Virus record (IMG/VR): IMGVR_UViG_2721755646_000011
Length of the DNA stretch: 64,000 bases
Origin: a virus
Lineage: Duplodnaviria; Heunggongvirae; Uroviricota; Caudoviricetes
Reading direction: 5' to 3' (one strand)
Shown: positions 44,001 to 47,000 of the stretch, piece by piece
How the letters are laid out: the number at the start of each line of letters is the position of its first letter
Numbering within the stretch: position 1 is the first letter of the stretch
Made by a program: the position numbers

Positions 44001-47000
44001 GATGGTTAAGCCAGCAACATTAACCGTTGCATTTAAAAAAGCCCGGGATTCTGTGGATTACAACTGGCGTGCTAATGGCACCCCACCCTCTTTCCATGAG
44101 CAGAGATCTTTATCAGAGCGATTGTTCAGAGAGCAGGGGGTTGATACCAAAATTTTGCTAGGCCATTCGAATCAAAAAATGATCGATATTTACAACGACG
44201 CACGCGGTAAGGAATGGAAAAAACTGGTCATTTGATGACCAGTTTTGCAGAGGGGTTTTGCAGAGGTTTTGCAGAGAAAATTAAAAACGATATCCTGCGG
44301 AGAACATAAACACCCACGGATCCAGTCGTACCGAGTCTTTCACGGTAGTAACACCAGATTTATACTTAGCCGTGGTATCGATATCCATGTACCACACTGG
44401 TAGATTTTACAAAACTCAATAACATATTATATTTAAAGGAAAAATACAGAATTTACGATGCTTTTTTATACAGATCTCTCGTGTTTTTAACTGATTGATT
44501 TTGTTGAACTCTTTTTTTGTTTTGCAGGAGTTACTCCTCTTACCTTATTGTCCACTCGATGACCAACACATTCACAACCCAAACCAGAATATCCTATCTA
44601 TGAAGCATGTATCCGCACGCAGATTAATTATGGTTTACATTGTTCTACCACAATAGTCGCATCCTAAATGGGTGCGGTTGAGGATCACCATCCTTGAAGA
44701 GGATGCCCGCCACTTTAACTGCATGACAGGGCTATTTAAACAATCACTAAAAATCGCCCAAGAGCATTCTGTTTCTATAATGTATTCCAAGAGATTAAAA
44801 AATAATATCATACGTTATTCGGCAGAGTTCGTATGTACTACGGCGTCCCAACCATGTCCCAAAACAAAAATTTCTGCCCTATACACGTTCCAAAAAATTC
44901 AACAGCAAAGAGAGTCTGCTGACGAGTTGTTGATTCACTGATTAATACGTAAAATTGATAACTGCTGGAAATCATACAATACTCGTACTTTCGAAAGTTC
45001 GCTAACCAGGTGCTACACGCGAGGTGTTACAGTTTTCTTTACGATTTATCATTCAATCCTAATCCATGCATGACATGTGGTGCCTGTGGGGTGATCCTAC
45101 CTACGTAATGTGGACACAGCCCTAATCAAGGTTCTGTTTTTCAAAACAGTTCCGTGCTGAGACAGCCACAAGTACTGTGTCGGCACCACCGATTGTAATC
45201 ACACTAGATCTAATTAAACACAGCCGTCTGCATTATTTCCCGACTCATAAAATATTAGCCGTAAATGCATTCGACTTTTAGTGAGTGGAAGAAACTTTCC
45301 GCCCTAGCATTATCGTAACAGCGCCCCTTTGCACTCATCCTGTCATGCAGGTATGCCGCTTCAGAAGCGCCTGATAATGCGTTGAAATCAGGACGGTGGC
45401 TACTTGCTATTCAGTTCACGATACATCCCTTAAGGACCAGCGAATAGCAATGAGTCACTTTATTATCAAGTTTGATGACCGCTTTGATGCTAACTTTTAA
45501 TAAGAGTCTCTTCACACAAAATCGTGTACCGAGTCTACACTGAATAACAATCACTCCTCACCGTAAAGTGACCGATACTGCAATCAAACTCACACTGCTC
45601 TCTGGCCACAAGCATTGATAATGTTATTGGCTCTCTGCTTAGTGGGTGATGCATCCCATCATTAATTATACGAGAAAGAGCCATTTCATCATATAAACTA
45701 CATACTCTGGAACCTTCAGCATTTCTTAAAAAAACACCTCGTTGAGGAATTGCCAGCGTAATCGGGCACTGTAATGCTTCATCTATGTAAGACATTTCTT
45801 CAATATTAACTAAAAATGAACATGAATGTAATCGCCGCTGTAACAATTCAATTCTGTTATCATTACTATGCATAAATTCAGAAATAACCTGCCCCATATA
45901 TGTACTGAATACATCAAGAAATGAATTGCCTCCATTCAATTGATTTTCAACAGAATCAGCCAATCTAATGATATCGGCTAGTTCTGTATGGCTTAAACCC
46001 GAATATAGTTCCTCTTGAACAGGATCTACAATAAAAGCGTCCATAGCACTCTGATAGCGAACAGAAAACGATCTTTCTCCTATTGTGAGTCTTTCCATTT
46101 GATGATCTCTGGTCGCACGTTGTAAAACTTCAACATCTTGTGTTGACAAGTAATTTCCAGAAGACAAATTAAATGAAAATGGCATAATTTTATCCCTAAA
46201 GCATATATCTTACTTTTCGATAATTAACAAAAAGCCATCCTCCACAGCAATACTCCATCAGAATAATTGTAGGATTATTTTAATCTAATTTATAAGCATA
46301 AAATATATACTCACTAAATAGCTGCGCAGAATAGTAGATCATTTAGAGGGAACTCAACCCGATTGTGCGATCTGATCAATCGCCAAATCAATACAAATCA
46401 CCAACCGGACTGAGCAATGTCGATCATACCACCAATTTCCCGTGACGAACGACGCCTAATACAGAAAGCCATCCATAAAAGGCTGACAGCCATGCTGATG
46501 CTGCACCGGGGCGACCGTGTCAGCGACGTTGCCCGCACACTATGCTGCGCCCGTTCCTCTGTTGGGCGCTGGATTAACTAGTTCACACAGTCGGGTGTTG
46601 AGGGACTGAAATCATTACCTGCCGAGCGAGCCCGCCGCTGGCCGTTTGCGCATATCTACACACTATTACGTGAACAGGTAAAATATTCACTCGCGACTTT
46701 GGCTACAATTATTCACGCTGGAGTACAGAACTGCTGACAATAAAAATCAATGAGATAACCGGCTGCCTGTTACATGCTGGAACCATTCGCCGCTGGTTGT
46801 CGTCTGTGGGGCTTGTGTGGCGAAGGGCTGCGCCAACTCTACGTATCCGTGCCCCGCCTAAAGATAAAAAGATGGCAACAATCCATAACGCACTGGACGA
46901 ATGCAGCACAGAGCATCCGGTCTTTTATGAAGATGAAGTATTTATCCATCTTAATCCCAAAATCGGTGCGGACTGGAAACTGCTCGGGAAGCAAAAACGA

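Follow-up and report, generated by a model that had tools for sequence, protein, structure and literature searches.

Three tandem copies of GTTTTGCAGAG directly downstream of an integrase gene are very probably the P' arm-type binding sites (P'3, P'2 and P'1) of that integrase, which sequence comparison and analogy identify as a heterobivalent, lambda-type tyrosine recombinase of the phage 21 subfamily. The repeats lie in a stretch of 64,000 nucleotides of Caudoviricetes DNA (IMG/VR record IMGVR_UViG_2721755646_000011, hereafter the window) that matches E. coli O157:H7 chromosomes of the EC4115/TW14359 type at 100% identity, and the integrase is that of PPompW, a lambdoid prophage that inserts at the 3' end of ompW. 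An earlier note on this DNA had described three tandem repeats of 11-12 bp beginning 7 bp past the int stop codon, and had interpreted them as arm-type Int sites of a lambda-type attP. The repeats themselves are confirmed by their coordinates, by Tandem Repeats Finder and by their uniqueness in the window, while the interpretation is supported by an additional copy on the P arm, by the layout of phage 21 and lambda and by the presence of such repeats in most relatives surveyed. The ompW target and a 121-bp attachment (att) sequence were already known (PMC8112680), as was an arm-site layout of this kind in phage 21 and lambda. What our analysis adds is a consensus for the probable arm sites of the PPompW Int, a crossover region narrowed to 28 bp, and a family-wide pattern of four site classes with fixed spacing.

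Probable arm-type sites on both arms of the attachment site

Exact copies of GTTTTGCAGAG start at positions 44242, 44255 and 44266, the first being the seventh base after the int stop codon, and Tandem Repeats Finder assigns the triplet a period of 11, 2.9 copies and a score of 54. This exact 11-mer occurs at only these three places on both strands of the whole window. Matches with two or fewer mismatches number 25, as compared with 19.5 +/- 4.8 in shuffled sequences, and are not enriched. Therefore, the signal is the exact tandem triplet and not a general enrichment of related sequences, and by our own estimate three adjacent exact 11-mers would be expected by chance on the order of 1e-8 times per 64 kb. 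A weight matrix was derived from 69 repeat units in other genomes, leaving out the window and a near-identical E. albertii copy. Across the whole window this matrix yields four matches of at least 15 bits, which are the three units and a site at 44519, with the next best match scoring 14.3 bits. The units, all on the plus strand, are designated putative arm-type Int sites as follows: P'3, the outermost and nearest int, at 44242-44253 (GTTTTGCAGAGG, 19.2 bits); P'2 at 44255-44265 (GTTTTGCAGAG, 20.8 bits), starting 13 bp after the start of P'3; and P'1, nearest the core, at 44266-44277 (GTTTTGCAGAGA, 18.2 bits), starting 11 bp after the start of P'2.

The protein expected to recognize these sites is encoded by int (43105-44235, plus strand, TGA stop at 44233-44235), a lambda-type tyrosine integrase of 376 amino acids with an N-terminal arm-DNA-binding domain. 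This domain is matched by Pfam Arm-DNA-bind_1 (PF09003) over residues 2-71 with an E value of 7e-22, and Phage_integrase (PF00589) and PF22022 are also present. The entire protein matches structures of lambda Int (5J0N and 1Z1B; E = 1e-55), and the catalytic residues R226, K249, H331, R334, H354 and Y363 are invariant in alignments with lambda and HK022. Its identity is 50% to the phage 21 and 4A7 integrases versus 36-37% to those of lambda and HK022, so that phage 21 is the closest characterized relative and the protein is assigned by sequence to the phage 21 integrase subfamily.

The same motif is found on both arms of the core, with three copies on the P' arm and one on the P arm. The P arm in the window (44400-44531) comes from a neighbouring tandem prophage, termed prophage A. 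The triplet follows the int of prophage B, whose own P arm was taken from the chromosome outside the window; the two P arms form a gap-free alignment of 131 bp in which 78% of positions are identical. The fourth motif copy, GTTTTGCAGGAG at 44519-44530 on the plus strand, scores 22.1 bits, is the top weight-matrix match of the window, and has the same orientation as P'1-P'3, making it a putative analogue of lambda P1. In both P arms this copy lies exactly 120 bp from the end of att identity (the prophage B version is GTTTTGCAGAAG), and immediately past it the similarity of the two arms drops to 57%, with insertions and deletions. Additionally, an exact consensus for integration host factor (IHF), AATCAATCAGTTA (WATCAANNNNTTR), is present at 44488-44500 on the minus strand, 19 bp from the P-arm Int site in the direction of the core, and would constitute a putative IHF binding site. 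It is the only match with one or fewer mismatches in 44236-44545, exact matches across the window occur at 0.14 per kb, and the other P arm has a copy with one mismatch at the same offset, 89 bp from the att end.

This arrangement closely resembles that of phage 21 (M61865), where GTTTTGGGGAAG is repeated three times with 13/12 spacing starting 11 bp after the int stop codon, and where a fourth unit, ATTTTGGGGAAAG, oriented like the other three, stands at the outside end of the far arm beyond the icd fragment. The layout of the phage 21 subfamily, with three units of about 12 bp that begin with (G/A)TTTT just past int and a fourth on the far arm, is found here as well. As in the present case, the phage 21 P' arm is long and carries a replacement 3' end of the target gene, which is icd in phage 21 and ompW here. 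The repeated dodecamers of phage 21 have reportedly been proposed as arm recognition sites, in a 1992 thesis by Schneider and by Wang and coworkers in 1997, and the latter study is reported to have delimited the minimal attP of phage 21 to 366-418 bp, with the outermost dodecamers required. The span between the outermost units is 289 bp here versus 398 bp in phage 21, as measured in M61865. There are also clear differences from phage 21, as the repeated unit is GTTTTGCAGAG here but GTTTTGGGGAAG there, and the arm motif here, TTTTGCAGAG, differs from that of phage 21, TTTTGGGGAA (phage 21 units TTTTGGGGAAG), such that the two represent separate specificity classes. Furthermore, the separate terminator hairpin that follows the units in phage 21, ahead of the gene fragment, is lacking here.

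The comparison extends to lambda and HK022, which in the int sense have P'3, P'2 and P'1 in that order from the int stop codon, and, at the opposite end of attP, a P1 with the same orientation, as is observed here. The lambda arm-type sites P'1-P'3 and P1 are those described by Ross and Landy and seen in structures 1Z1B and 5J0N. Lambda also has a homologous Int with the same domain order and an IHF site beside P1. In contrast, lambda Int is only 36% identical, and the lambda consensus in the int sense is ATAGTGACT-like. The lambda attB is intergenic while the site used here is the 3' end of ompW, and the lambda P' arm is about 50-60 bp shorter than this one, whose extra length is explained by the need to accommodate the 3' end of ompW, in the way that phage 21 brings along that of icd.

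The location of the triplet raises the alternative that the repeats act at the level of RNA or transcription, either as a 3' untranslated region or terminator of int or of the ompW gene rebuilt upon integration, or as a sib-like retroregulator. A strong hairpin, CTGGTCA-TTTGA-TGACCAG, spans the int stop codon (44224-44242, both strands) with a run of A before it and a run of T after it (44219-44246 including the runs), and it overlaps the first unit. Its fold has an energy of -17 kcal/mol and z = -6.0 on the minus strand, with z = -3.6 on the plus strand. From this modelled fold the hairpin looks like a terminator in both directions, serving int and rebuilt ompW, although a simple terminator scan does not call it. 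Such a role for the repeats is also compatible with their position between the convergent stop codons of int and ompW', where they would be transcribed from both sides. However, direct repeats cannot pair with each other, and of unit 1 the hairpin takes in no more than the initial G/TTTT. It is, moreover, not kept in icd-targeting relatives, which retain the triplet and have a separate terminator further on, and an RNA element leaves unexplained both the presence of a fourth copy on the opposite arm, at a distance of 250 bp, and the fixed 13/11 spacing. An Rfam search also gave no match, and we give this explanation a very small chance. Concerning ompW itself, the hairpin is the sole terminator candidate for the rebuilt gene and therefore ompW transcripts would read through the three arm sites.

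Tandem prophages in ompW and the site of strand exchange

Positions in the window were related to the EC4115 chromosome by the conversion in which window position x equals NC_011353.1 position 1781551 - x on the reverse strand. In the orientation of the EC4115 record the annotated order is intact ompW, int A/xis A, prophage A, a 126-bp OmpW fragment, int B/xis B, prophage B, a second OmpW fragment and yciE. The far end of prophage A carries nleA, nleH1-2, nleF, espM1 and nleG, and RefSeq labels the 126-bp fragment at the middle junction as 'OmpW ... missing N-terminus'. This order shows two lambdoid PPompW prophages inserted in tandem in ompW, with the triplet at their middle junction. Membership of the triplet-bearing prophage in the PPompW family is indicated by its lambdoid nature, insertion at the ompW 3' end, a 121-bp duplication and the same int/xis pair; int plus xis have 99.6% DNA identity and 99.7% protein identity to the PPompW records LC5678xx, and LC567822 is annotated, at the position that corresponds to 44279-44399 of the window, with a 121-bp 'duplication due to insertion of PPompW'.

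The PPompW family has been described by Nakamura et al. (2021, PLoS Pathog; PMC8112680). Their analysis defined the 121-bp PPompW att by sequencing attP from induced cells, and established that PPompW excises and circularizes at this att after mitomycin C treatment. PPompW is present in 44% of complete E. coli genomes, and tandem PPompW pairs are known in O157:H7 (PMC8112680). That study takes the whole 121 bp as att and the term 'arm-type' is absent from its text. Relative to it, we describe the same element family and the same duplication, but cut the crossover to 28 bp and place four putative arm sites.

For mapping of the core, the three EC4115 junctions were aligned with the empty site of K-12. 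The 121-bp att homology (44279-44399, minus strand) is a phage-borne ompW 3' end in which the ompW stop codon occupies 44281-44283 and 95 of 121 positions are identical to K-12 ompW, leaving 26 positions at which phage-type and host-type copies differ. Over all 121 bp, phage-type sequence is found at the int-side junctions and host-type sequence at the yciE-side junction. Past ...CCACACTG (44399) the host has more ompW coding sequence, while both prophages have an AT-rich P arm. The sole stretch adjoining the P arm that is identical in both types of copy is a block of 28 bp, GTGGTATCGATATCCATGTACCACACTG (44372-44399), and since the two copy types share only this block beside the P arm, strand exchange is placed inside 44372-44399. 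The block is also kept in Kluyvera and Salmonella relatives that target ompW and whose ompW fragments differ elsewhere. It contains an inverted repeat, GTGGTA-N12-TACCAC, the halves of which are plausible candidates for core-type Int sites flanking the overlap.

The earlier note had expected the core and the prophage boundary within about 150 bp of the repeats. This proved correct, as the att homology and crossover block extend from 2 to 123 bp beyond the repeats and the boundary falls at 44399/44400. Its expectation that this junction would reveal the integration target was likewise borne out, the target being the ompW 3' end, although this target and the 121-bp att had already been published (PMC8112680). 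What does not hold is its description of the boundary as one between a prophage and an island, as what follows 44399 on the right is the P arm and effector locus of the second PPompW prophage, and not host sequence or a separate island. The middle junction is a hybrid in which the P arm belongs to prophage A and the P' arm to prophage B, with the core between them, as expected from tandem integration of two PPompW phages, and it is predicted to be usable as the attR of prophage A and the attL of prophage B.

A search for a matching core at the other end of the prophage had also been proposed, with the region near 2100-2270 or DNA beyond the window as suggested locations. Such a copy does exist, beyond the window on the yciE side and not near 2100-2270. 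The other end of prophage B is an ompW 3' fragment at NC_011353.1 1782567-1782692 that adjoins yciE, 1017-1142 bp to the left of the window start, and the intact ompW that borders the neighbouring prophage at its far end contains the fragment as well. A search for a second att or ompW-fragment copy within the 64-kb window found none, and the other ends were recovered from the EC4115 chromosome. The interval 2100-2270 is ruled out as a prophage end given that it falls inside a tail-fibre gene repeated in both prophages. A repeat family is found here with one copy at 2178-2344 in the tail-fibre gene of prophage B and others at 55278-55444 and 59379-59517 in prophage A, and this family represents prophage-to-prophage homology and not an att site.

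The approximately 93 bp between the repeats and the core block (44279-44371) constitute a replacement 3' end for ompW. This replacement is not synonymous over 44281-44371 (minus strand), with the OmpW C-terminal part ending ...TTAKYKSGVTTVKDSVRLDPWVFMFSAGYRF in the lysogen, where the intact ompW is a hybrid, and ...TTANYKLGGAQQHDSVRL... in K-12. Consequently, integration rewrites part of an outer-membrane protein. Seven OmpW residues are changed, between the last two strands and probably in a surface loop, and Kluyvera and Salmonella relatives carry still other versions of the ompW 3' end. On the other side of the junction, a long AT-rich stretch without intact genes (44400-45500) runs from the P arm to an NleG-family gene, with an IS3 transposase remnant inside. 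In addition, PPompW elements contain a 21-bp secondary attB ('attB-in-PP_1') about 428 bp from attR (Nakamura et al., PMC8112680).

Arm-repeat classes among relatives of the integrase

The DNA after the int stop codon was surveyed in 80 loci, one genome per species, that encode Int relatives of 48-99% identity, plus five phage loci for a total of 85, with the absence of a repeat scored within 600 bp. Repeats beside int, whose absence from related phages would by the earlier note have refuted its reading, are present in phage 21, 4A7, Klebsiella and Providencia phages and phages of the potC site, and overall a tandem repeat follows int in 69 of the 85 relatives, from many Enterobacterales genera. 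Exactly three copies occur in 63 of these, and in all 63 three-copy loci the start-to-start spacing is 13 bp followed by 11 or 12 bp. One could view the triplet as a neutral, functionless product of replication slippage, a minisatellite, for which the presence of 2 to 5 copies in a few relatives would be suggestive. However, the triplet is kept across Int relatives of 48-99% identity and across many genera, the spacing is invariant, and the sequence of the units falls into four classes that track the protein. The chance that slippage explains the triplet is therefore close to negligible.

The four unit classes are TTTTGCAG with 24 loci including the window, TTTTGGGG with 27 including phage 21, TTTTGATAA with 16 and TTTTACTG with 2. 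In the papers covered, a literature search found no description of these four class motifs. Class is independent of the integration target, as integrases of three classes target icd, and members of the TTTTGCAG class are found at ompW, icd and elsewhere. Residues 7, 13, 15, 19, 21 and 28 of the Int N-terminal domain are class-specific (for example, PGLS...YWRY versus PNLY...YWQY), with a signature of G13, S15 and R28 in the class of the window versus N, Y and Q in the phage 21 class. Within the TTTTGCAG class, ompW- and icd-targeting integrases have an identity of 0.68 in the N-terminal domain versus 0.54 in the rest of Int. When icd-targeting members of the TTTTGCAG and TTTTGGGG classes are compared, the values are 0.53 for the N-terminal domain and 0.60 for the rest. 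As N-terminal domain identity across classes is 0.51-0.53, this domain follows the motif class and the remainder of Int follows the target. Such a modular split is what contact between a DNA-binding domain and its site predicts, and it lends indirect support to the predicted binding of the arm motif by the Int N-terminal domain.

The covariation does not, however, involve Int alone, and this bears on the possibility that the triplet consists of binding sites for Xis instead of Int. The excisionase gene xis (42879-43127, plus strand) adjoins int and overlaps its start; its 82-residue product is labelled 'excisionase' in RefSeq and matches Pfam Exc (PF07825) with an E value of 1.3e-7. Xis identity is 0.58 within a class across targets versus 0.41-0.46 between classes, so that Xis partitions by motif class about as well as the Int N-terminal domain does. 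Direct repeats would also suit Xis, as lambda Xis binds the tandem direct repeats X1, X1.5 and X2. The lambda Xis sites are nevertheless located on the P arm between P2 and the core and not on the P' arm by the int stop codon, which puts the triplet on the wrong arm. Additionally, the copies all share one orientation, with three by int and the fourth at the outer end of the opposite arm, which is the arrangement of the lambda Int sites P'1-3 and P1. What favours Int over Xis as the binder is that the units correspond, position for position, to the Int sites in lambda and phage 21, and the 5' linkage of xis to int would yield the Xis covariation as a by-product. We consider it very improbable that the triplet is a set of Xis sites.

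Several observations do weigh against Int arm sites at this junction. Because Xis also partitions by class, covariation alone cannot separate binding by the Int N-terminal domain from binding by Xis. In 14 of 83 evaluable relatives there is no repeat within 600 bp after int even though int is apparently intact; these relatives may be degraded elements. Two lambda features, the inverted P2 and the H' site, are not found here: a second P-arm site like lambda P2 was not detected at 2 bits or more at a conserved position by the weight matrix on both strands, and the interval from the core to P'1, in which H' is located in lambda, has no IHF consensus. As a rule, PPompW prophages are defective (PMC8112680), and the prophage studied here has a frameshifted exonuclease gene, such that recombination activity of this copy is only putative. 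Separately, one of the 14 relatives without a repeat has an N-terminal domain almost identical to that of a repeat-bearing Kluyvera locus. The exonuclease gene is an 814-codon open reading frame upstream of xis (40370-42814) that RefSeq treats as a frameshifted pseudogene, which fits the report of PPompW prophages as defective (PMC8112680).

A broader proposal can be built on the survey. The phage 21 Int family may comprise at least four discrete and mutually exclusive arm-site classes (TTTTGCAG, TTTTGGGG, TTTTGATAA and TTTTACTG) with a rigid three-site 13/11 geometry. Each class would form one swappable module of xis, Int N-terminal domain and arm sites that recombines independently of core and target specificity (icd, ompW, potC and others), with class set by N-terminal residues 7, 13, 15, 19, 21 and 28. 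We put this forward tentatively, at somewhat less than an even chance of being right. Less likely than such modules is a second idea, in which ompW transcription through the arm sites, as part of the 3' untranslated region of rebuilt ompW upstream of the shared bidirectional terminator, could modulate Int loading on the P' arm.

Proposed recombination mechanism and implications

Homology to lambda and phage 21 provides the basis for a proposed mechanism. The N-terminal domain of each Int protomer would dock on an arm-type site, three of which are on the P' arm beside int, the fourth being the unit at 44519 near the outside end of the P arm. The same protomers would use their core-binding and catalytic domains to bind the core in the ompW 3' end within the block 44372-44399, probably at GTGGTA/TACCAC. 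Bending of the arms by IHF (44488) and, for excision, also by Xis would allow bridges to form, and strand exchange in the core would then integrate or excise the prophage. After insertion, the approximately 93 bp of phage-borne ompW sequence would rebuild the ompW 3' end, as phage 21 does for icd.

These results leave the understanding of lambda-type recombination unchanged, and the arrangement is routine and largely known. What they fix is the anatomy of a very common E. coli prophage junction, with putative bases for the arm sites and a strand-exchange zone of 28 bp instead of 121 bp, and they offer a testable arm-site consensus for this integrase. Recognition of a second prophage's end in the DNA past the junction also helps prophage-boundary annotation in enterohaemorrhagic E. 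coli, where tandem and nested prophages confuse automatic callers. If the class modules proposed above are real, then the Int and Xis of one prophage would not act on a co-resident or tandem prophage of another class, and the classes would provide ready-made orthogonal integrase parts.

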